Shown: one piece after another, positions 31,451 through 61,221 of the stretch | Numbering within the stretch: position 1 is the first letter of the stretch | Layout: the number at the start of each line of letters is the position of its first letter | Assembly: GCA_964016885.1 (NCBI GenBank) | Contig: OZ024757.1 | Span: 40,734,001 to 40,798,000, forward strand | DNA: 64,000 nucleotides | Direction of reading: 5' to 3' | From: Eledone cirrhosa | Taxonomy: Eukaryota | Made by a program: the position numbers and the translations under genes | The notes under the pieces: model-generated | The model's database searches: none | The model's input: only the letters and a program-made list of their open reading frames with translations | What the model was told of the DNA's origin: nothing

Positions 31451-31998
31451 CCTTGAATCTCAGTCATTGATGTTGGTTAACTGGAAAGTCCGTTGGATTG
31501 AATATCAAGCCACTACCTGCAGCCTCAGATATTCAGGACGTATCGGAGGGTTCTTGCCGTTCCAAGCAAGCATGCCTTTTGAAGCGTTCCAAAAAGCGTG
31601 AAGGGGCCGATTTTCTTTAACCATCCCTGGAAACCTTTGGAGATAGTCCCCAGTGCGCCTATGACAATCGGGATCACTTTGACTTCATGGCAGTTCCAAA
31701 TCCTTTTCACCTCCCACTTTAGGTCCTGGTATCGGTTAATTTTCTCCCTCTCCTTCTCTTGCACTCTCGTGTCGAACGGGCAGGCCACATCCACAATCAG
31801 GCACGATCTTTTTTCTTTGTCCACAACCACCAGGTCAGGTCTATTGTATTCCAGTTTTTTGTCCGTCTGTATCCTAAAATCCCACAGCACCTTCACCTGA
31901 CTGTTCTCCATCACCGCCTCTGGCCTATGCTCATACCATTTCTCAGAATGTGGTAGATTGTTTACTTTGCACAGGTGCCAGTGGATCACCCTGCCCAT
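31451..31998 (-). mobile_element. 5'-truncated R4/Dong-like non-LTR retrotransposon (restriction-like endonuclease C-terminus plus 3' UTR) in (TAA)n
   Basis: IHWHLCK...WYEHRP...VLWDFRIQTD...NRPDLVVVDK...IVDVACPFD...EKINRYQDL...IPIVIGALG is a PD-(D/E)xK RLE domain. Stop at 31525. Flanked by (ATT)n. Confidence 0.9.
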
Positions 31999-32001
31999 CA
32001 C

Positions 32002-32034
<33 letters not shown>

Positions 32035-32047
32035 CATTATTATTATT

Positions 32048-32325
32048 CTTTGAGTCTCAGTCATTGATGTTATTTAACTGGAAGGTTTGTTGAAATGAAT
32101 ATCAAGCCACTACCTTCAGTCTCAGATATTCAGGACGTATCGGAGGGTTCTTGCTGTTCCCAGCAAGCATGCCTTTTCAAGTGTTCCAAAAAGCGGGGCG
32201 GGACCAATTTTCTTTAACCATCCTTCGAAACTCTTTGAGATAGTACCTAGTGCGCCTATGACAATCGGTACCACTTTCACCTCATGGCAGTTCCAAATCC
32301 TTTTTACCTCCCACTTTAAGTCCTG

Positions 32326-45425: not shown

Positions 45426-45615
45426 GTAGATAAATCTACCAAGAGTTTACGGTAGTGTCCAATCCGTATGAAGAACTCAATATATTCCGGATATCATGGA
45501 AAGAAGAGATGTAATGAAAATCCAATTTCGGTGAAAGATAAACGATATACAGAGTCAAGATAAAATATTAAACAAATAATGAACAAACAATTCCTTATAT
45601 TAAACAAAAAAAGTT

Positions 45616-45766
45616 CACTATTTAACGATCGTTTCTAGGGCATATATGTGTTATAATTGATATGCATATTTAACAGATCTATGTACAAAATTATACAAAA
45701 TTATACAAATTATCAAGATTAAATATACATACCTAACTCATATATACGCCGTCTTCAGAAATAATG
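45616..45766 (-). ncRNA. Type I hammerhead ribozyme with ~115-nt stem II (left copy)
   Basis: Mirror of 54449-54599 with one substitution. Confidence 0.78.
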
Positions 45767-46537
45767 AAGTATATTTATTGATAATAACAACAATTCAAAA
45801 TATCAGTTCAAAATTGACCAATGAAAACACAAAGGGTTAAAAAGCAGTTTGGTGTGTGTATATACATGTAAAACCCCACACACATTTTACAATAATGTGT
45901 GTATAATCTGTATGTGCATACTAAAAAGATGGATGCAAATAAAAAATTTCAAGGTTAATATCTCTGTAAGCTTAATGCGCTGATAAGATACGCAATGATA
46001 CTTATGGAGTCAAGCATATAAATATATTTTTTTCATACTCACACATATCAGTATAATCACACATACATGTGCGTATATATATAAATATACACATAACCAC
46101 AAACACACAAACACACACACTCCCCCACTCACATTTATATATGTGGATATAAAATCATAAGCAAATAGAAATTAAGTCACTCACATAAACACACTGGTAC
46201 ACACATTTCAAGATCAAGATACAGAAATTAGGTGGGAGGGGGGGGGAGGGGTCAGTATTAGACTGTCAGACCAGACAACCTTAATATAAATGTATCTATA
46301 AATTATGAAAAATAAAAAAATAAAAACAATAAAGTATAATACATATAATATAATGTACGTACGCATACAGATATACATACACATACATACATGTACGCGC
46401 ACATAGAGATATCTATACATACATACATACACACATACCTATACTGTCATACACACACATACATTTACACGAACTTACACATACACATATAAAAAGATAT
46501 AAATACGGACACACACACGCGCAACACATACATACAT

Positions 46538-46588
<51 letters not shown>

Positions 46589-46697
46589 TATACACACACA
46601 CGTAGACTCATATATATATACATACACATACATACATTTATACACAAACATATATATCCCACACTCATACCACCATAAAAACACATACAAACATCCA

Positions 46698-46748
<51 letters not shown>

Positions 46749-46969
46749 ACATACACACACGTACACACATATGTATATATACATACATATATACACACAT
46801 ACACATATATATATATCCACACACACACATAAAATACGGACATGCACATATATATATATATATATATATATATTTCATTACTCTTATATATACACACAGT
46901 ATATATACATACACAACCTCACTTATACACATATACACATAAGTTATATTACAATAATAATAAAGAATA

Positions 46970-47000
<31 letters not shown>

Positions 47001-47149
47001 CATATATATACACACATATACACATATACATACACACACATACACATACATACATACATACACATACATACATACACCTAAATATAAACATATATAAATA
47101 CACACATACGAATAAAGACATATATTCACACATAGACACCTATATACAC

Positions 47150-47181
<32 letters not shown>

Positions 47182-47211
47182 CAATATACACACACATACA
47201 CATACATACAC

Positions 47212-47249
<38 letters not shown>

Positions 47250-47278
47250 GCACACACATACAGACACACATACACACT

Positions 47279-47309
<31 letters not shown>

Positions 47310-49037
47310 GTGTATGTGAGTGTGCGCCAATACATATATATACATATATACACACACACATACAAACACACACAAACTCATACATATGCATACGCACACA
47401 CACACACACATATACCACATAGATACGAAGATAAACATATAAATAGAGAGACATACAAATATATACAGAACCCATATACACATACATACAAACACGCATA
47501 TACATATATATACATATATACACACATATATATTCCTATATACAAGCATACACATACACACACATATATACATATACATACACATATACATATCACACAT
47601 TCACATACACGTACATATATAATACATATATATACATACATATACATATATATGTATGTACAATCATATACACACTCAATCTTACATTCATATTTACATG
47701 CTCATATATGTATTTTTATATTTAGAAATAAATACCAAAAAAAAACTATATAGACACCCATCTACATATATATTCATACATATACACTTACAAAAACAGA
47801 TGATAATAGTATGGGGGAAAGGGGGGGTTTGGAGAAGGGGATCAAAATAAATATATGTTTCAAGAAACATATAATATTTTCCATATCTTAATTCAATGTA
47901 TGTTCCTAACATATTTTCAGTGCTAGGAAATACGAAATCTATGCATCACAAAATAAAAAAAGTATACTATTAATCATATGTCAACTAAACCAAAGATAGT
48001 CAACATATTGATTTCCAAGGTGTAAATTAGTTAGGTTTATAATATTTGAGGCAGAATTATGAAGTCAAACAGTAGTAGATTATTAATTACATTATAACTA
48101 AATTAAAGTTAATAACGTTATGGTATCAATATTAGGAGATGAATAGGGAAAAGAAACCCAAATAAAAATAAAAATAAAATAAAGTATTACATCGGTAGTA
48201 GCATATAAATTATATGTTAACTAAGTTAAAAATTATATATTTATTTCAATAGTATATGTTAATTAGTATATGTTAATTAGGTATACAATATATAAAGCAG
48301 ATATTGTATTTCATCAATAGCATAATATAATTATATGCAAATAAAAATCAAAATTAATACGCACACATATACATATACATACACATACACATACCTATAC
48401 ATATACATACACATATATATATATATATATACATATATATACACATACATACATATATAGTCACATAAATATACATACAGATACACATACAACACACACA
48501 TATACATATACATATAGATATACATATCTTTTTCAAAAAATTTGCACAGAATATATTAACTAGGTATATATCCAAAAACACCTCCCATTCTATGATTACA
48601 TGACATTCTGCAATTTGTCTGTACAATGATACTAATTTTAAGCAAATTAAAGTTAAAATTAAAGTTTTAGGTTGATTAAAGCTAAAACCAAATAATAAAT
48701 ATATTTCCAAAATGTATATTAATTAGGTCAATAATACTAAAAATTCTTTCTCCGTCATAGGATACATGATATTATTTTGTTATATTTTATCTGTAAAAGA
48801 ATTATAATAAAAAAAATTATAATAAAAGGTTAAACTAAATTAAAAAATTATAATAAAAGGTTAAAATAAGTTAAAATTAATCTATAAATTAAATTACTGA
48901 ATATATATTAGTAATATTTAAAGGTTTTTCAAAATTAATGATTACATAATATTTTCTCATCTGTAATAAAATATTAATTAAATTAAATTTATAGGTTAAC
49001 TAACATTTAAATTAAATTAAATTCTAGAATAATGTTA

Positions 49038-50413
49038 TTAATTAGGTTTATAATATTTAAATGTTTTTTTTAGTTTATGATTACACGATATAATTAATTC
49101 CTGTCTTTTATTTAATAAGATATCCCTAGACTTCATTATTTCAAATAGTTCTTGGGAACATAATCTACATTCCTTTCTATTATTTTGATAAGGGGTGGCT
49201 CTTTTGAGCACACTCCAGGTCAAATCATATTTTATATTTTTATTTTTATAACTATTGATTTTTTCTGCTAGAGATGTTGTATTAGCCAGTGCGGCATTTT
49301 TAAAGCTATGTTTGTGGGTATTATATCTTGTCTTAAAATTGTTAGAGGTAGCTCCTATATATGAGCAAATAGAATCTTTAGTTTTAACATTACATTTATA
49401 GACTATGTTGTTAACAAGACAATTCCCTTTTAATGGGCAGTTTGTTTTGTTTCTACAGTTACATCCTTTCGTTAATTCTGTATTTGAGGAGATATTATTG
49501 TTAATTTGATGTACTGGTGGTATACTTATAGTTTTCTTACATTTATATGCATTATATGCACTTATATTTTGTTTTATGTTATTTGTTGTAGAATATGAGA
49601 ATTTAACTGTAGACCTATTTAAGATTTGATGGTATTTGTGGTTTGGCGGGAAGTTTTTCTCAAGGATATAAAAAAATTTTTTAGCAATATTATCCTTAAC
49701 TTGTAAATTAAAAGGAGCATTATACCAAGTAACTCGTCTATTACGGTTTCTATGTTGTTTATTATTTTTATTATTTTTATATGTTGTATCATGATTTTTA
49801 CTAGGAGGAATAATGTTAATGATCTCACCATAACTATTTTTAGTTATATTTGTAGATTTAGGTGTTTTATCTTTTTTATTAGGAGTTTTATTATTAATAT
49901 TTATTATAGTCTTATGATGAGTAGTTTTTTGAGGGTTACTATACTTTATATTAAAAGATTTAGTATTTTGGGGTATACTGTGGGTGGCATTTAGGTGTAT
50001 ACTTTTCATTTGGTGTTTGTTGGTAATATTATGCTGTATGCTTTCAGTATTTTTAGTAGAAGGTATATACTCTAATCTATTTTTGTGGCCACTTCTATCT
50101 AGAGCTTCATTATAAAAGGTCGCATTTTTATCAAATACATCTTGGTTAGAAGAAAGGTTAGAAATTCTAAGTGATATATTATATGCAAGGTTTTTAAGGA
50201 TAGATTTAGGGTGATTAGATTGTGAGTGTATGTAATGTAAGTTTTGGTTAGGTTTATGGTAAGGTTGGTATATACCCGTAGCTAAATCTAAAGTTATATC
50301 TAGGAAATTTACTACTTTACTTGTTTTTTCAAAAGTAATATTAAGATTATAATAGTCTTTAAGGAAAGTTCTAATATGCTTTTTGTTTTTTTCGATTTCT
50401 GAAAGGCTAAGGT
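49038..50413 (-). CDS. Partial Penelope-like polyprotein: RT C-terminus/thumb, linker and GIY-YIG endonuclease
   Basis: VNFLDITL, YHKPN, YIHSQSNHP, RRVTWYNAPF, CNCx5CPLxGxC, VYKC...YIGAT...FKTRYNTHKHSF, CRLC. The frame is uninterrupted. The first ~13 aa of the listed ORF come from the inverted arm. Confidence 0.9.
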
Positions 50414-50414
50414 T

Positions 50415-51167
50415 GATACAACATATAAAAATAATAAAAATAATAAACAACATAGAAACCGTAATAGACGAGTTACTTGGTATAATGCTCCTTTTAATTT
50501 ACAAGTTAAGGATAATATTGCTAAAAAATTTTTTTATATCCTTGAGAAAAACTTCCCGCCAAACCACAAATACCATCAAATCTTAAATAGGTCTACAGTT
50601 AAATTCTCATATTCTACAACAAATAACATAAAACAAAATATAAGTGCATATAATGCATATAAATGTAAGAAAACTATAAGTATACCACCAGTACATCAAA
50701 TTAACAATAATATCTCCTCAAATACAGAATTAACGAAAGGATGTAACTGTAGAAACAAAACAAACTGCCCATTAAAAGGGAATTGTCTTGTTAACAACAT
50801 AGTCTATAAATGTAATGTTAAAACTAAAGATTCTATTTGCTCATATATAGGAGCTACCTCTAACAATTTTAAGACAAGATATAATACCCACAAACATAGC
50901 TTTAAAAATGCCGCACTGGCTAATACAACATCTCTAGCAGAAAAAATCAATAGTTATAAAAATAAAAATATAAAATATGATTTGACCTGGAGTGTGCTCA
51001 AAAGAGCCACCCCTTATCAAAATAATAGAAAGGAATGTAGATTATGTTCCCAAGAACTATTTGAAATAATGAAGTCTAGGGATATCTTATTAAATAAAAG
51101 ACAGGAATTAATTATATCGTGTAATCATAAACTAAAAAAAACATTTAAATATTATAAACCTAATTAA
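50415..51167 (+). CDS. Partial Penelope-like linker plus GIY-YIG endonuclease (no start codon)
   Basis: DTTYKNNKNNKQHRNR...YIGAT...KYYKPN*, the mirror of 49038-49790. Confidence 0.85.
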   Translation, partial: DTTYKNNKNNKQHRNRNRRVTWYNAPFNLQVKDNIAKKFFYILEKNFPPNHKYHQILNRSTVKFSYSTTNNIKQNISAYNAYKCKKTISIPPVHQINNNISSNTELTKGCNCRNKTNCPLKGNCLVNNIVYKCNVKTKDSICSYIGATSNNFKTRYNTHKHSFKNAALANTTSLAEKINSYKNKNIKYDLTWSVLKRATPYQNNRKECRLCSQELFEIMKSRDILLNKRQELIISCNHKLKKTFKYYKPN

Positions 51168-52905
51168 TAACATTATTCTAGAATTTAATTTAATTTAAAT
51201 GTTAGTTAACCTATAAATTTAATTTAATTAATATTTTATTACAGATGAGAAAATATTATGTAATCATTAATTTTGAAAAACCTTTAAATATTACTAATAT
51301 ATATTCAGTAATTTAATTTATAGATTAATTTTAACTTATTTTAACCTTTTATTATAATTTTTTAATTTAGTTTAACCTTTTATTATAATTTTTTTTATTA
51401 TAATTCTTTTACAGATAAAATATAACAAAATAATATCATGTATCCTATGACGGAGAAAGAATTTTTAGTATTATTGACCTAATTAATATACATTTTGGAA
51501 ATATATTTATTATTTGGTTTTAGCTTTAATCAACCTAAAACTTTAATTTTAACTTTAATTTGCTTAAAATTAGTATCATTGTACAGACAAATTGCAGAAT
51601 GTCATGTAATCATAGAATGGGAGGTGTTTTTGGATATATACCTAGTTAATATATTCTGTGCAAATTTTTTGAAAAAGATATGTATATCTATATGTATATG
51701 TATATGTGTGTGTTGTATGTGTATCTGTATGTATATTTATGTGACTATATATGTATGTATGTGTATATATATGTATATATATATATATATATGTGTATGT
51801 ATATGTATAGGTATGTGTATGTGTATGTATATGTATATGTGTGCGTATTAATTTTGATTTTTATTTGCATATAATTATATTATGCTATTGATGAAATACA
51901 ATATCTGCTTTATATATTGTATACCTAATTAACATATACTAATTAACATATACTATTGAAATAAATATATAATTTTTAACTTAGTTAACATATAATTTAT
52001 ATGCTACTACCGATGTAATACTTTATTTTATTTTTATTTTTATTTGGGTTTCTTTTCCCTATTCATCTCCTAATATTGATACCATAACGTTATTAACTTT
52101 AATTTAGTTATAATGTAATTAATAATCTACTACTGTTTGACTTCATAATTCTGCCTCAAATATTATAAACCTAACTAATTTACACCTTGGAAATCAATAT
52201 GTTGACTATCTTTGGTTTAGTTGACATATGATTAATAGTATACTTTTTTTATTTTGTGATGCATAGATTTCGTATTTCCTAGCACTGAAAATATGTTAGG
52301 AACATACATTGAATTAAGATATGGAAAATATTATATGTTTCTTGAAACATATATTTATTTTGATCCCCTTCTCCAAACCCCCCCTTTCCCCCATACTATT
52401 ATCATCTGTTTTTGTAAGTGTATATGTATGAATATATATGTAGATGGGTGTCTATATAGTTTTTTTTTTTTTTTTTTTGGTATTTATTTCTAAATATAAA
52501 AATACATATATGAGCATGTAAATATGAATGTAAGATTGAGTGTGTATATGATTGTACATACATATATATGTATATGTATGTATATATATGTATTATATAT
52601 GTACGTGTATGTGAATGTGTGATATGTATATGTGTATGTATATGTATATATGTGTGTGTATGTGTATGCTTGTATATAGGAATATATATGTGTGTATATA
52701 TGTATATATATGTATATGCGTGTTTGTATGTATGTGTATATGGGTTCTGTATATATTTGTATGTCTCTCTATTTATATGTTTATCTTCGTATCTATGTGG
52801 TATATGTGTGTGTGTGTGTGCGTATGCATATGTATGAGTTTGTGTGTGTTTGTATGTGTGTGTGTATATATGTATATATATGTATTGGCGCACACTCACA
52901 TACAC

Positions 52906-52936
<31 letters not shown>

Positions 52937-52965
52937 AGTGTGTATGTGTGTCTGTATGTGTGTGC

Positions 52966-53003
<38 letters not shown>

Positions 53004-53033
53004 GTGTATGTATGTGTATGTGTGTGTATATTG

Positions 53034-53065
<32 letters not shown>

Positions 53066-53214
53066 GTGTATATAGGTGTCTATGTGTGAATATATGTCTT
53101 TATTCGTATGTGTGTATTTATATATGTTTATATTTAGGTGTATGTATGTATGTGTATGTATGTATGTATGTGTATGTGTGTGTATGTATATGTGTATATG
53201 TGTGTATATATATG

Positions 53215-53245
<31 letters not shown>

Positions 53246-53466
53246 TATTCTTTATTATTATTGTAATATAACTTATGTGTATATGTGTATAAGTGAGGTT
53301 GTGTATGTATATATACTGTGTGTATATATAAGAGTAATGAAATATATATATATATATATATATATATGTGCATGTCCGTATTTTATGTGTGTGTGTGGAT
53401 ATATATATATGTGTATGTGTGTATATATGTATGTATATATACATATGTGTGTACGTGTGTGTATGT

Positions 53467-53517
<51 letters not shown>

Positions 53518-53626
53518 TGGATGTTTGTATGTGTTTTTATGGTGGTATGAGTGTGGGATATATATGTTTGTGTATAAATGTATGTATGTGTATGTATATA
53601 TATATGAGTCTACGTGTGTGTGTATA

Positions 53627-53677
<51 letters not shown>

Positions 53678-54448
53678 ATGTATGTATGTGTTGCGCGTGT
53701 GTGTGTCCGTATTTATATCTTTTTATATGTGTATGTGTAAGTTCGTGTAAATGTATGTGTGTGTATGACAGTATAGGTATGTGTGTATGTATGTATGTAT
53801 AGATATCTCTATGTGCGCGTACATGTATGTATGTGTATGTATATCTGTATGCGTACGTACATTATATTATATGTATTATACTTTATTGTTTTTATTTTTT
53901 TATTTTTCATAATTTATAGATACATTTATATTAAGGTTGTCTGGTCTGACAGTCTAATACTGACCCCTCCCCCCCCCTCCCACCTAATTTCTGTATCTTG
54001 ATCTTGAAATGTGTGTACCAGTGTGTTTATGTGAGTGACTTAATTTCTATTTGCTTATGATTTTATATCCACATATATAAATGTGAGTGGGGGAGTGTGT
54101 GTGTTTGTGTGTTTGTGGTTATGTGTATATTTATATATATACGCACATGTATGTGTGATTATACTGATATGTGTGAGTATGAAAAAAATATATTTATATG
54201 CTTGACTCCATAAGTATCATTGCGTATCTTATCAGCGCATTAAGCTTACAGAGATATTAACCTTGAAATTTTTTATTTGCATCCATCTTTTTAGTATGCA
54301 CATACAGATTATACACACATTATTGTAAAATGTGTGTGGGGTTTTACATGTATATACACACACCAAACTGCTTTTTAACCCTTTGTGTTTTCATTGGTCA
54401 ATTTTGAACTGATATTTTGAATTGTTGTTATTATCAATAAATATACTT

Positions 54449-54599
54449 CATTATTTCTGAAGACGGCGTATATATGAGTTAGGTATGTATATTTAATCTT
54501 GATAATTTGTATAATTTTGTATAATTTTGTACATAGATCTGTTAAATATGCATACCAATTATAACACATATATGCCCTAGAAACGATCGTTAAATAGTG
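54449..54599 (+). ncRNA. Type I hammerhead ribozyme with ~115-nt stem II (right copy)
   Basis: CATTATTT-CTGAAGA-c-GGCGTATAT...ATATATGCC-cta-GAAAC-GATC-GTT-AAATAGTG. Confidence 0.8.
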
Positions 54600-54646
54600 A
54601 ACTTTTTTTGTTTAATATAAGGAATTATTTGTTCATTATTTGTTTA

Positions 54647-54686
<40 letters not shown>

Positions 54687-56174: not shown

Positions 56175-56232
<58 letters not shown>

Positions 56233-56322
56233 CTTTGACTTTGAATAACTTTGAAATGTTTTGGCCAGTATTGGCCCAGGCCATGTCTAACTTAATAGCA
56301 CCACCTGGCGAAGTCTTTCAAT

Positions 56323-58290
56323 TCAGGATTTGGGCACCATGGCCCATTCGAGAAGAGAATTACTGTTTGCGGAGACATATCCGGGTGTGGGTGGTTTGTC
56401 CGGGATTACTTGGAGGAATTTGTCCAAAGACTTCTTGAATTTTGTGTGGTCAGTTTCTGTTTTGACGTGTCCTGGTGTGATGTTGAAGAGAGCAGGGCCG
56501 ATTGAGGTGAAATAATTGTGCCGTATTGTTGTTATGAGTTGCGATTTAGATTTTTGAATGGGACGGATAGCACGGGGCCCAAGCCTTGGGTGTATCTTGA
56601 AGGCGATGCCAACATCATTTGGGCAGTGATGATGGAACATTTTCCACATCATGCAGATAATATAACGCTCACGGCGACGTTGGAGTGAGTAAAGTTTCAG
56701 GTTTTCCAATCGACCCCAGTAGTCAAGGTCTGACATGCCATCTATCTTTTTCGTGATTGCCCTTTGAGGAGCTTCAAGTTTCATGATACTTTGTTTCGTG
56801 TGGGGAGACCACAGTGGACAACAGTATTCAAGGTGTGGTCGGGCGAAAGTAGAGAAGAGAAGGATAATGGTGCGGGAATCTCTCGACTGGAAGGTTCTGA
56901 GGATCCAGGAACACATTCTGCGGGCCATGTCAACTTTGCTGCTTATATGCGTGGTCCAGCTTATGTTGCTGTCCACGGTTACTCCCAAGTCTCTGATGTT
57001 GTTAGATGCCACGAGAGTTTCCCCGGAGGGAAGGGAGTACGGGAGTTTCAGAGCATCCTCTTTTCCAAAGTGGATCAGTTCGAATTTGTCTTCGTTCAGT
57101 AACATGTTGTTCTTTTCTGCCCATTGGGTAACAGCCAGTAGGTCTGACTGAAGGCTTATCCGGTCATCCACGCCATTGATGACCTTTTGGAGCTTGGAAT
57201 CATCAGCGAAAATTTTAATGTTGCTGTGTTTGATGATGTCAGTGATGTCATTAATATAGATGATGAAGAGAAGTGGGCCCAACACAGTGCCTTGTGGGAC
57301 TCCACTACTGACTTTGGCTGGGCTTGATTTGACTCCCTCAACTACAACATGTTGGGTTCTGTTTGACAGGAAGCTCTTGATCCACTGCAGCAGCTTTCCA
57401 GTGACACCAATATTGGACAGCTTTCTCAGTAGAATGTTATGATCAACCCTGTCAAAGGCCTTGCTGAAATCAAGGTAGATAACATCAGTGTTGGAACCCT
57501 CTCCCAAGGCTCTCAAAATGTCATCAAAGTGATGCAGTAGTTGCGTCAGGCAATCCCTTCCATTACGGAATCCATGCTGGTTGGAGTTCAGCATATTGTT
57601 ACTCTCAAGGAAGTGGGTCATTCGCGATCTCACCACTCGCTCAAATACCTTAATGATATGAGAGGTGAGTGAGATTGGACGGTAATTCACGGCAAGGGAT
57701 TTGTTTCCCTTTTTGAAAACTGGGACAACAGACTGGGATAGAAGGTTTTCTGGCACATATCCAGCATCCAGTGAGTTCCGCCACAGATTGGCAAGAGGAG
57801 AAGCAAGTTGGTGTTGACACGCCTTCAAGACACAAGCAGGGAACCTATCGGGACCTACTGCTGAATTATGCTTGATTTCCTTTATTGCCGCCAAGACATC
57901 AGGGGCGCCAAACGTTATGTCCGATAAGGTGTAATGGGGAGTAACATCGCCGATACAGCCCAGATCGGCCATATCAGGATTGCTGAAAACAGAGCAGTAT
58001 TGTTTCTGCAGTATCTCACCCATGGTTTTAGCATTGTCTTGAAGAGTGCCATTTTCATCAATTAGAGGGCCAACAGTAGAGCCAGTGATTTTGTGTTTTT
58101 TTGCAAATGAAAAGAACACTTTGGGATTGAGTTTGATCTTCTCAATGGCCCAGGCCTCTTCAGCTCTTCTCTGATTGTTGATGAGGGACATTATGTTGTT
58201 TTGGAGGTTATGTTTTTTAATCTCTAGTGATGAAATGGCAGTCAAGTTGATGTGTTGCTGCTGACAGTATTTCAGATTGTTGATTTTTTT
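56323..58290 (-). CDS. LINE ORF2 C-terminal part: reverse transcriptase, split from APE by a 1-nt homopolymer frameshift
   Basis: GPD, PVFKKG, NYRPISLTS, QHGFR, YLDFSKAFD, GVPQGTVLGPLLF, FADD, RDLGV, RPHLEY motifs. Confidence 0.95.
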   Translation of the reverse strand, partial: KKINNLKYCQQQHINLTAISSLEIKKHNLQNNIMSLINNQRRAEEAWAIEKIKLNPKVFFSFAKKHKITGSTVGPLIDENGTLQDNAKTMGEILQKQYCSVFSNPDMADLGCIGDVTPHYTLSDITFGAPDVLAAIKEIKHNSAVGPDRFPACVLKACQHQLASPLANLWRNSLDAGYVPENLLSQSVVPVFKKGNKSLAVNYRPISLTSHIIKVFERVVRSRMTHFLESNNMLNSNQHGFRNGRDCLTQLLHHFDDILRALGEGSNTDVIYLDFSKAFDRVDHNILLRKLSNIGVTGKLLQWIKSFLSNRTQHVVVEGVKSSPAKVSSGVPQGTVLGPLLFIIYINDITDIIKHSNIKIFADDSKLQKVINGVDDRISLQSDLLAVTQWAEKNNMLLNEDKFELIHFGKEDALKLPYSLPSGETLVASNNIRDLGVTVDSNISWTTHISSKVDMARRMCSWILRTFQSRDSRTIILLFSTFARPHLEYCCPLWSPHTKQSIMKLEAPQRAITKKIDGMSDLDYWGRLENLKLYSLQRRRERYIICMMWKMFHHHCPNDVGIAFKIHPRLGPRAIRPIQKSKSQLITTIRHNYFTSIGPALFNITPGHVKTETDHTKFKKSLDKFLQVIPDKPPTPGYVSANSNSLLEWAMVPKS

Positions 58291-59344
58291 TGTTCGTTCT
58301 CTTAATTTTTCTGATGAGCGTTTTTCTATTTCTAGGGATTCTGCTCTTAGATTTGTTTATAGTTCTTAATGGGGTGTGTTTAGCACATATGTTTGTAACA
58401 GTGTCCACAAATGTCTGCCAGGACTTTTTGATGTTAGTGGGTGTATGAGTGTGCGTGAAGGACCAGTCGACATGTGCAAGATCATGACTGATCGCTTCCC
58501 AGTTTGCATTGTGGAAATCCATAGCGTCAAACGGATGGGCAGGAGAAATGACATTGGGTTTGTATATTGGACGGTGGAATCTCAGATCACAGAGAACCAT
58601 GTCATGATCAGAGAGTAGAGTTTTCTCCACTGCAATATTGTGGATATTGTCAGTGTGATTGCTGAAAATTAAGTCTAGGACGTTTTTGTGGCACCTCGTT
58701 GGTTCGAGCACTAGTTGGGATAGGAAGAAATCATCCATGAAGTCAAGAAGCGATTCCACAGCTTCCCTGTCAGAGGTTGAGGCAGAAGAACCTGGTGGCA
58801 GGGTGTTTGTGGACCAGTCAACTCCGGGGAGGTTGAAGTCCCCCATCATTAAGATGTTGTCAGGGTGACACTCTTGGATGAAACACTTTATGCTGTTGAG
58901 GCATTCCTTGAAGCATGGTACAGGCGTTTGGGGTGGCCTATAGAGCCCAACTACTAATAGGTTGTTGGTTTGACTGAATACAGTGACTGCTTCACAGTAT
59001 CCATTAGTGAATATGTTCATAGCCTCTGTTGAGAAAGAATTATGGACATAAATGGCAGTTCCGCCCTTTCTTCTGCCAGCGCGATCAGCACGGATGGCTT
59101 TGAAATTTTTCACTTTCACCTCGGCTTCCAAGTGGAGGTTACTGAGATGGGTTTCAGTGAGGACGAAGAAAGGGATGTGGTTTGGATGGACATCAATCCA
59201 GTCCTCCAGGAATTTGATCTTCCATTTTTGAGTATTGGTGGAAGGGCTGATGCCTTGGGCGTTAAGCAAAAATGTAGAGGCGAGGGTGGATGGTTTTAAT
59301 TGTTTTGGTGTGTTGTTAATTTGTTTGTTTGTTAATGGCAGCAA
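58217..59344 (-). CDS. LINE ORF2 N-terminal part: apurinic-like endonuclease
   Basis: LLNAQGI, LTETHL, RADR...GGTAIYV, LYRPP, MGDFNLP, PTR...LDLIF, SDH motifs. Confidence 0.93.
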   Translation of the reverse strand: MLPLTNKQINNTPKQLKPSTLASTFLLNAQGISPSTNTQKWKIKFLEDWIDVHPNHIPFFVLTETHLSNLHLEAEVKVKNFKAIRADRAGRRKGGTAIYVHNSFSTEAMNIFTNGYCEAVTVFSQTNNLLVVGLYRPPQTPVPCFKECLNSIKCFIQECHPDNILMMGDFNLPGVDWSTNTLPPGSSASTSDREAVESLLDFMDDFFLSQLVLEPTRCHKNVLDLIFSNHTDNIHNIAVEKTLLSDHDMVLCDLRFHRPIYKPNVISPAHPFDAMDFHNANWEAISHDLAHVDWSFTHTHTPTNIKKSWQTFVDTVTNICAKHTPLRTINKSKSRIPRNRKTLIRKIKRTNKKNQQSEILSAATHQLDCHFITRD

Positions 59345-60486
59345 TGGGAGTTTGTGCAGTGGGGTGATAGTGGAGGGTGGTGCTGGGTGATAGCTCGAAT
59401 GTTTTTTTCCAGTTCTTTTGCCAGATTCATTATGGCTAAAAAAGAGGAAGAAGTTTCCTGTTTAGAAGACTGTTGGTGACTGTGGTAGTGGTTATTTTTA
59501 TGTAGGTTATGGTTTTTGTTTTTGCTTTTATTTTTAATTTTATTTTCATTTATCCGACGGGTCCCCGGGAGATGGGTAAAGGGACAATCCCGGTCTAAAC
59601 ACAATCTGTCTCGCAGGGAAAAACGGCAGATTTGTGGATTCCTTGTTTGAGTTATTGGTGGTTGTGTTGGTGTTAAATTAGAGTATGTATTATGGTGGTG
59701 GCTGTTTGTGGGGATAGATCGTTTTGTCCTAGGTAAATGGGTGAATTTGCAGCCACTATCCGTACATATTCTATAGCGTAGAGAGTAGCGGCAAATGATG
59801 GGGTTTCGAGTGGGTGGGTATGTGGGTGTGGGTGTTGTGAGAGGTGTAGATGATGGTTTGGGTAGGATTTGACGACCTTTGTGGACTGTGGGAGGGAGAG
59901 TTCTTGTTCTGGTATTAGAAGGTAAATTCCTTGACATAGCAGTAGACAAAAATGTTGTAGTAGTAGTAGTAGGCAGAGATGTTGGCAGTGGTGATGATTG
60001 GACTGCTGGGCCAGAGAAAGGATGTGGCGTTTCATGCTGTGAGACAGAGGCTACTGGGGGGTCAATAGTTTCATTTAGTAGATCGGCCATTGTTGATGAA
60101 TCAAGGAGTGGTTCACACTGTTGTTGTTGCTGTTGTTGATGTTGTTGTTGTAGCTGTTGTTGATGTTGTTGTTGTAGCTGTTGTTGTTGTTGCTGTTGTA
60201 GCTGCTGTTGTTGTTGTTGCTGCTGCTGGACAGCATTCGAAGAGAAAACACACCGTAGTTTATCCAAATGTTTATTGATTAATTTAAAAGCAATTTCGAT
60301 TTGCTTTAATTTATTTTGAATCTGTTGTTCAGATCGAGTTTTCAAAAATTGAACTGTACGTTTAGCAATGTCGTTCAGAGATGAAACATCTATATTTTCT
60401 GTTTGGGAAAGGCAATGCCATGTGTTTATTAGAATGTCGATTTCATTATCAGACCAGTTCTGTTTGGATTTTTGCTGGTTAGCCAT
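59332..60486 (-). CDS. LINE ORF1: Myb/SANT-like N-terminus, polyQ, two CCCH-type zinc fingers
   Basis: NWSDNEIDILINTW...TRSEQQIQNKLKQI; CRYSLRYRICTDSGCKFTH; CRFSLRDRLCLDRDCPFTH. Lies directly upstream of the APE domain. Confidence 0.85.
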   Translation of the reverse strand: MANQQKSKQNWSDNEIDILINTWHCLSQTENIDVSSLNDIAKRTVQFLKTRSEQQIQNKLKQIEIAFKLINKHLDKLRCVFSSNAVQQQQQQQQQLQQQQQQQLQQQHQQQLQQQHQQQQQQQCEPLLDSSTMADLLNETIDPPVASVSQHETPHPFSGPAVQSSPLPTSLPTTTTTTFLSTAMSRNLPSNTRTRTLPPTVHKGRQILPKPSSTPLTTPTPTYPPTRNPIICRYSLRYRICTDSGCKFTHLPRTKRSIPTNSHHHNTYSNLTPTQPPITQTRNPQICRFSLRDRLCLDRDCPFTHLPGTRRINENKIKNKSKNKNHNLHKNNHYHSHQQSSKQETSSSFLAIMNLAKELEKNIRAITQHHPPLSPHCTNSHCCH

Positions 60487-60497
60487 TCTAGTTTTGA

Positions 60498-60958
60498 GTG
60501 TGTGTGTGTTTTAGTTAAGTATTTCAATATATATATATTTTTTTTTTAAATTTATTTTTGATTTATTTTTGTTTTTTGTTTTTCTTGTGTGTGAGTGAGA
60601 AGCGTATATATATAAATATGAGTATATATATATATATATATGTATATTCTGGTTATTTGAAATTAATTAAGTTAATGAAAAGACGAAAGTATATAATAAT
60701 AATTTGTAGTTAAAGGAAAATGTACTCACAAGTTCGTGTGTGTGTGTTTTAGTTAAGTATTTCAATATATATATATTTTTTTTTTTTAAATTTATTTTTG
60801 TTTTTTGTTTTTCTTGTGTGTGAGTGAGAAGCGTATATATATAAATATGAGTATATATATATATATATATATGTATATTCTGGTTATTTGAAATTAATGA
60901 AAAGACGAAAGTATATAATAATAATTTGTAGTTAAAGGAAAATGTACTCACAAGTTCG
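60498..60958 (-). repeat. ~238-bp tandem duplication in the LINE 5' UTR
   Basis: GTGTGTGTTTTAGTTAAGTATTTC...GTACTCACAAGTTCG occurs twice. Confidence 0.9.
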
Positions 60959-61099
60959 AAAACACGTGGTTTCAAATATATAATAATATAGATGTATGAA
61001 AAATGTATTAACCGGTCAATTTTTGTTTGTTTGGTTTTGTCTTGTGGTTTTGTTTTGTGGCTGTGTGACTTGCTGCTTACTCGGGGAGAGAAGTAAAAA

Positions 61100-61137
61100 C
61101 ACGTCCTTATACTTCAACTGCTCAACTGCTCAACTGA
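61100..61137 (-). promoter_or_regulatory. Inr/DPE-like internal Pol II promoter of the LINE
   Basis: TCAGTT with A+1 at 61135, and GGACGTG at +30 to +36. Confidence 0.55.
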
Positions 61138-61221
61138 ATATTTATATATAAACGTATGCGCGTGTGTGTATTTATATTTATTTATGTCCATATAAGCACT
61201 TTTGCTCCATGTATGAAAATA

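Follow-up and report, generated by a model that had tools for sequence, protein, structure and literature searches.

Predicted -1 ribosomal frameshifting at a conserved U UUU UUA heptamer joins ORF1 to an AUG-less ORF2 in a LINE family of Eledone cirrhosa

A LINE in the genome of Eledone cirrhosa encodes its endonuclease and reverse transcriptase (RT) in a frame without a usable AUG of its own, which raises the question of how these enzymes are translated. The copy lies on the minus strand of a stretch of 64,000 nucleotides (assembly GCA_964016885.1, contig OZ024757.1, positions 40,734,001 to 40,798,000), referred to here as the window, and is composed of the following parts.

56231..61139, minus strand: full-length APE-type LINE copy of about 4.9 kb, ends approximate, with a TA-rich repeat at the 3' flank
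60498..60958, minus strand: tandem pair of ~230-bp repeats in the 5' UTR of the LINE
59332..60486, minus strand: ORF1, 384 amino acids, ATG at 60486 and TAA at 59334-59332
56323..59461, minus strand: ORF2 frame (1045 codons long when intact), comprising a linker, the APE endonuclease from about codon 59 and the RT
58284..58291, minus strand: run of eight A that splits ORF2 of the window copy between endonuclease and RT
56231..56322, minus strand: short 3' UTR, near-invariant in subfamilies A, B and C, with terminal short tandem repeats

On the basis of RT motifs we tentatively place the element in the CR1/L2 lineages of the Jockey superfamily. Its status as a LINE is evident from an ORF2 with APE endonuclease (PF14529, E = 6.7e-14) and RT (PF00078, E = 9.3e-32), the presence of an ORF1, a repeat tail, dispersed 5'-truncated copies and the lack of LTRs. 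No protease domain was seen in its ORFs. ORF1 starts at an ATG with A at -3 and G at +4 and encodes, in order, a weakly Myb/SANT-like N-terminus (PF13837, E = 0.008, below the cut-off), a poly-Q stretch, two Cys-Cys-His finger-like repeats judged by eye, a Phe-Leu pair at the proposed shift site and an amphipathic-looking tail. The window copy has eight A in place of the usual seven within ORF2, leading to two frames of 414 and 677 amino acids; 25 of 30 other fetched loci continue past this position as far as the locus extends.

The ORF2 frame opens at 59461 in the -1 frame relative to ORF1 and overlaps it by 130 nt. The following features are found at this junction.

59462..59464, minus strand: TAA closing the -1 (ORF2) frame, six codons upstream of the first heptamer, with TGA as its counterpart in subfamily B
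59436..59443, minus strand: slippery heptamer T TTT TTA (59443-59437) and the following G, the predicted -1 shift site
59420..59436, minus strand: GCCA/TGGC hairpin of 4 bp, weak and without spacer, an unlikely stimulator
59401..59407, minus strand: second in-phase heptamer A AAA AAC, lost in subfamily B
59339..59344, minus strand: ORF2-frame codons TTG CTG, located 10 and 7 nt upstream of the ORF1 stop, candidate near-cognate starts

The initial annotation of this locus had described an ORF2 at -1 with an overlap of about 130 nt and no ATG until inside the APE domain; the coordinates agree, as does the first methionine of the ORF2 frame, which is encoded at 59020-59018 and corresponds to codon 148. 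Both heptamers it had reported are seen in the window sequence in X XXY YYZ phase and at the positions given. The first heptamer exceeds what chance would produce; the second heptamer and the hairpin do not. Met148 is an implausible start because the endonuclease begins near codon 59, where residue 1 of the L1 endonuclease aligns (PDB search; weak match, E = 0.002), and because 12 of 35 invariant endonuclease columns precede it. Translation from Met148, which lies within the endonuclease, would lose the first ~90 endonuclease residues. The comparisons described below make it probable that ribosomes reach ORF2 through a programmed -1 frameshift at U UUU UUA (U6A), yielding an ORF1-endonuclease-RT fusion.

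The AUG-less -1 junction is the design of the whole family. A DNA search of the 3.0-Gb Eledone cirrhosa genome returned 1412 candidates, 40 of which were scored, and in unbiased pattern counts 620 copies had a run of six T, six copies had seven T and five copies had five T. The LINE family is young and abundant, its junction being present more than 600 times. Twenty copies were fetched at full length and represent a biased sample selected for junction likeness; their first methionine falls at codon 148 in 20/20, the 1045-codon ORF2 frame is found in 14, and 16 of the 17 having an ORF1 start show the -1 phase. These counts bear out the heptamer and its phase over family copies and yield neither the in-frame ATG before the endonuclease nor the fused single ORF that the initial annotation had named as contrary outcomes. 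They also bear on an alternative in which some transcripts gain an extra U because RNA polymerase slips on the T run or in which the active master element is a fused single ORF. Seven-T copies do exist, as noted, and at least one of them (L150) is an in-frame fusion. This was the one such case among 12 copies with unusual frame lengths, the junction being absent or cut in the rest, mostly owing to TA repeats at 5' truncations, and the long open frames of other copies derive from the same kind of repeat. Gains of a T (6), however, are about as frequent as losses (5), resembling homopolymer noise. Since slipped RNAs would be copied, the 620 copies with six T refute slippage or a fused master as the main route, and we give this explanation next to no credence.

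Divergent subfamilies and a distant family of the same genome retain the first heptamer; the second is not kept throughout. Subfamily B (eight loci with the junction, ~70-75% DNA identity, upstream ORF1 not alignable) has kept six T followed by A in five of eight decayed copies, four of them with the G. A -1 stop is retained just upstream of the heptamer in this subfamily and the overlap contains 3- and 30-nt deletions. In subfamily C, for which 21 of 30 loci could be anchored, the T TTT TTA site is present in most copies. Family D, with an endonuclease ~30% identical, carries T TTT TTA G two codons past a -1 stop and possesses an overlap of 226 nt with the first methionine at codon 145, an arrangement seen in 17 of 18 loci displayed (20 fetched). 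The second heptamer, A AAA AAC, had been put forward as another possible shift site; it is canonical and in phase in subfamily A and its A run is present in subfamily C. Subfamily B however reads G AAA AAC, family D and the metagenome members of the clade described below do not have the motif, and no structure is found behind it, so that a shift at this position, alone or in addition to the first site, appears extremely improbable. A further family of the genome, family E, combines a 957-codon ORF2 at -1 and a first methionine at codon 101 with an ORF1 ending in G GGA AAC TAA.

Canonical heptamers are found at the ORF1/ORF2 junctions of many distant LINE lineages. While a metagenome scan with a single protein as query gave no match, an alignment-based scan of metagenome contigs yielded 64 loci, which together with 17 loci from the Eledone cirrhosa genome resulted in 81 loci examined, 34 of them with an upstream frame of at least 150 codons. 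Before counting, L052 (no overlap), L144 (unlike a LINE) and L119 (same frame) were dropped, the decayed family D copy L059 was replaced by L184 and near-duplicates were merged (L061/L075/L079, L082, L115, L128/L129 and L088), leaving 19 lineages with a -1 overlap and four with a +1 overlap. An in-phase canonical heptamer is present in 16 of the 19 -1-overlap lineages compared with 3.9 expected from the upstream rate, and heptamers in these lineages are in phase in 17 cases and out of phase in four (p = 1e-5). T TTT TTA accounts for ten of the 16 lineages, G GGA AAC and A AAA AAC for two each, and T TTA AAC and A AAT TTT for one each; these five different heptamers include those of three unrelated families in the Eledone cirrhosa genome. 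All ten T TTT TTA lineages have G as the next base, as do 11 of 11 rows examined. The three -1 lineages without a heptamer have a methionine at codon 4-5 (two lineages) or 68 (one), and the four +1-overlap lineages have one at codons 4-26 and no such heptamer.

In an endonuclease tree of 39 rows, the window element belongs to a clade of 14 rows with 99/99 support. Five of these rows are proteins without DNA and all nine rows with DNA (9/9) belong to T TTT TTA G lineages, the subfamily B and family D rows being decayed copies whose sibling copies carry the motif. The motif occurs in ORF1 phase in subfamilies A, B and C, family D and six metagenome lineages of the clade, and in two further lineages outside it. 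Endonuclease identity is mostly 28-57% within the clade and 22-57% pairwise among the 10 lineages compared. The ORF1 proteins of the clade share Cys/His finger repeats (by eye) and a Phe-Leu pair followed by an amphipathic-looking helix, with weak PHD matches below the cut-off in some relatives. A more distant family, found in contigs from related organisms, resembles the window at the junction only over 59414-59445, representing the heptamer and the next 22 nt.

Codon and frame counts indicate that conservation at the heptamer acts on RNA, not on protein. Elsewhere in these elements, Phe-Leu pairs are never encoded as T TTT TTA (0/46). Given the amino acids and codon use, the chance of the heptamer is 0.009-0.08 per lineage, and the product over 10 lineages is 1e-16, a value weakened by the relatedness of the lineages, although their identities are 22-57%; for the eight clade lineages, in which Phe-Leu can be located from protein alone, it is 1e-13.5 (summed by hand). 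In eight of 10 lineages a stop closes the -1 frame 0-7 codons upstream of the heptamer, and in three of these it is immediately adjacent; in the other two lineages the stop lies 35 and 21 codons upstream. Between heptamer and ORF1 stop, the -1 frame contains no stops in 615 codons vs 22 expected from synonymous shuffles of the 10 lineages, a comparison that excludes a subfamily B row carrying an additional A and that involves some circularity for the two lineages not belonging to the clade. For the eight clade lineages, the corresponding numbers are 0 observed and ~15 expected (hand sum). Upstream of the heptamer, 85 stops are observed and 95.5 expected from the same type of shuffle. Overall, the junction possesses several features of a frameshift signal, namely an in-phase heptamer, a -1 frame closed before and open after it, no usable AUG and conservation beyond the protein.

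The G following the heptamer could also be read as part of a splice signal. Here, TTTTTTAG would serve as a splice acceptor joining an upstream AUG-bearing exon to ORF2, which would also account for the opening of the ORF2 frame at this AG. The G found in 11/11 rows creates the AG, and a pyrimidine run precedes it in family A. Most relatives however lack a pyrimidine tract before the six T, and the sequence is always TAG and in ORF1 phase. Spliced retrocopies are expected under this explanation because reverse transcription should act on the very RNA that encodes the RT, but the spliced signature (two non-T at -4/-3), a pattern that junctions with an upstream exon ending in TNN would evade, is found in 0 copies vs 640 unspliced ones. 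The only two copies with a non-T at -3 (CAG) are colinear point mutants. Furthermore, none of the joints listed (15 of 29) from four contig sets guessed to be RNA is located at 59435/59436, and one contig of 2,033 nt is colinear across the site. We consider splicing at this position very unlikely.

A serious rival, and the main one, is AUG-independent termination-reinitiation. Ribosomes would terminate on the ORF1 TAA and resume translation from the CUG or UUG located 7-10 nt upstream, producing a free ORF2p, with the heptamer as a by-product of Phe-Leu; reinitiation is the route described for L1 and SART1 (PMC2881922, PMC5009743), with L1 said to use an unusual initiation (PMC5009743). The TTG CTG is kept in subfamilies A and B, and the ORF1 stop lies near the start of the endonuclease in most clade members, with a stop-start TGATG in L085. 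Such a position of the stop would also be expected because a frame-0 stop in a -1 overlap needs an NTA or NTG (hydrophobic) codon in ORF2, and these codons first become common at the endonuclease. Contigs of a related organism from two runs show a 12-nt deletion at 59341 that, if its flanks equal those of the window, might give rise to an ATG 7 nt ahead of the ORF1 stop, but the Eledone cirrhosa genome has 0 copies of this kind. A methionine early in the ORF2 frame, at varying positions, in four of 10 U6A lineages (L081, L085, L092 and L121) likewise speaks against the frameshift reading. In this family, start-like codons near the ORF1 stop are limited to TTG, CTG, ATC and ATT; among the 11 rows compared, one has an ATG at +2. 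Across the clade, no start-like codon is common to one place. Reinitiation also leaves unexplained the fixed codons of the Phe-Leu pair (0/46), a -1 frame free of stops for up to 89 codons and the other canonical heptamers found elsewhere. As the explanation of the junction we judge it unlikely, while it could act beside frameshifting.

No stimulatory structure was found 5-9 nt downstream of the heptamer in this LINE family. The GCCA/TGGC hairpin pointed out in the initial annotation does exist, but a role as stimulator is not borne out given its folding energy of -4.4 kcal/mol, its zero spacer and a z of -0.7 vs shuffles. For folds of 30-200 nt with spacers of 0-9, short windows reached at best -2.2 to -5.6 kcal/mol, and windows of 50-200 nt after the heptamer were no better than shuffles (z near 0). 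A simple pseudoknot scan at the junction returned only weak, far-apart stems and no consensus structure emerged when 16 aligned copies of subfamilies A-C were folded together. Hairpins 7-12 nt behind the site are present in the relatives L084, L090 and L092 (z -0.7 to -1.6). Pairing of the junction with the 3' tail was also considered as a stimulator and is not borne out. The underlying 7-bp match ranks 3/54 in subfamily A and 1/71 in one subfamily B copy, but in four distant U6A lineages it ranks 10/26, 12/138, 97/167 and 14/38, and in co-folding the tail prefers its own stem, the 3' UTR being predicted to self-fold at -23.7 kcal/mol. The tail is invariant, which leaves no covariation to support the pairing.

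In the proposed frameshifting mechanism, most ribosomes would read the Phe-Leu pair in frame 0 (QETSSSFLAIMNLAK at the junction) and finish the 384-amino acid ORF1p with its helix-like tail. A minority would slip back by one base at U UUU UUA to produce a fusion of ~1,390 amino acids, consisting of ORF1 residues 1-350 and, in an intact copy, 1,037 ORF2-frame residues that comprise a low-complexity linker, the endonuclease and the RT. The predicted transframe junction reads ...ETSSSF(L/F)SHNESGK. The initial annotation had proposed such an ORF1-APE-RT fusion through a -1 shift at the first heptamer, and the comparative tests lend it support through the phase, the missing ATG, the deep conservation and the lack of a spliced or fused master. 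The shift would likely be of low efficiency because no strong downstream structure is found in this family; it would be driven mainly by the U6A run and would set a high ratio of ORF1p to enzyme. As no protease domain was seen, the zinc-finger part would remain attached to the enzyme. U6A also permits -2 slips (PMC3458567); as read from the sequence, a -2 slip at this site would run directly into the UAG of the motif and terminate there.

The closest parallel is the gag-pol junction of HIV-1 (PMC4373837, PMC3458567), which has the same U UUU UUA followed by G, with a structural, RNA-binding protein in frame 0 and the enzymes in the -1 frame of a fusion, as predicted for the LINE. In HIV, slippage at U UUU UUA does not require the stem-loop, and the next codon starts with G (PMC4373837). 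In contrast to HIV-1, the LINE is a non-LTR element without a stable stem-loop or a protease, and its shift is a prediction. Frameshifting by -1 in non-LTR elements has precedent in Dictyostelium TRE5-A and TRE3-A, whose APE-RT ORF2 is said to require it (PMC5911963). These are protist elements of the L1 clade that target tRNA genes, unlike the window LINE, which shares its conserved heptamer with an entire clade. HeT-A gag of Drosophila likewise needs a frameshift (PMC5009743), but within a gag-only non-LTR element without RT. Jockey-superfamily CR1/L2 LINEs resemble the window LINE in having two ORFs, APE and RT in ORF2, a variable ORF1 and a short tandem-repeat tail (PMC4120745); 'frameshift', 'overlap' and 'CCCH' have 0 occurrences in the available text of this LINE survey. 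Human L1 and silkworm SART1 share the bicistronic RNA, and their ORF2 depends on ORF1 translation (PMC2881922, PMC5009743), but they reinitiate near the ORF1 stop to give a separate ORF2p, whereas the window LINE has no AUG, a long -1 overlap and a conserved heptamer. In the accessible literature searched, which included parts of PMC1965478, PMC4700185, PMC3592465, PMC1925062, PMC12857005 and PMC3894237, no description was found of a slippery heptamer where ORF1 meets ORF2 in CR1/L2-type LINEs.

How LINE ORF2 is translated has been answered only for L1 and SART1, in both cases by reinitiation. A slippery site kept at 30% protein identity indicates that a group of animal LINEs likely solves ORF2 translation as retroviruses do. 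Extending the comparison of overlaps and heptamers, we lean towards the view that Gag-Pol-style -1 frameshifting is the normal enzyme route across much of the diversity of animal LINEs, producing an ORF1-fused endonuclease-RT, in the present family from a bare U6A-G site. The predicted enzyme would then change from the methionine-started fragments found in protein databases to an ORF1 zinc-finger fusion of ~1,390 amino acids. Frameshifting would also account for AUG-less ORF2 annotations and may offer a point at which the ratio of ORF1p to ORF2p is controlled.

Candidate frameshift sites recur in other LINE families of the Eledone cirrhosa genome. Family D (L179-L197) is young, has an endonuclease about 30% identical to that of the element under study and carries the same T TTT TTA G site, with an overlap of 226 nt and the first Met at codon 145 of the ORF2 frame. 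Family E (L158-L162, L068), a young family unrelated to the element under study, has an ORF2 frame of 957 codons at -1 with the first Met at codon 101, and its ORF1 ends in G GGA AAC directly followed by TAA. This heptamer is a candidate for a second shift site in the same genome, different from T TTT TTA. Canonical in-phase heptamers other than T TTT TTA (T TTA AAC, A AAA AAC, G GGA AAC and A AAT TTT) occur among the distant LINEs L099, L091, L124, L131 and L114. Separately, five metagenome LINEs (L093, L110, L112, L123, L141) have a single ORF with a 2A-like GD(V/I)ExNPGP motif at its N-terminus; motifs of the 2A type are the known alternative recoding route (PMC3894237).

Features of the window are as follows.
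31525-32073, minus strand, 182-aa frame
45560-49791 and 50414-54655, inverted duplication with 4.2 kb arms, 99.7% identical
56231-56322, minus strand, LINE 3' UTR
60498-60958, minus strand, LINE 5' UTR of two tandem units of about 230 bp each

By eye, the 182-aa frame resembles the restriction-like endonuclease that R2/R4-type retroelements carry at their C-terminus, and a fragment at the centre of the inverted duplication (49038-50498, 50403-51167) resembles a Penelope-type RT tail/GIY-YIG gene; Pfam comparison returned no match for either. The duplication arms are separated by 622 nt; they may form a genuine fold-back or may have arisen in the assembly as an artefact.

The tandem 5' UTR units resemble monomer promoters, and some copies, such as L013, have three. 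The 3' UTR is nearly invariant across subfamilies A, B and C despite their diverged ORF1s, and a GG(T/C)GG...TGGCCTG pattern is found again in family D and L081 (loci L167-L176, L228 and L081). The 3' UTR or its pattern is likely the RT recognition signal. ATATAT lies directly 3' of 16 of 19 full-length copies (3' flanks, L031-L050; 3' end of the window copy at 56231), a raw count in a genome itself high in TA repeats, and TA repeats also adjoin 5' ends. The LINE thus likely prefers (TA)n microsatellites for insertion.
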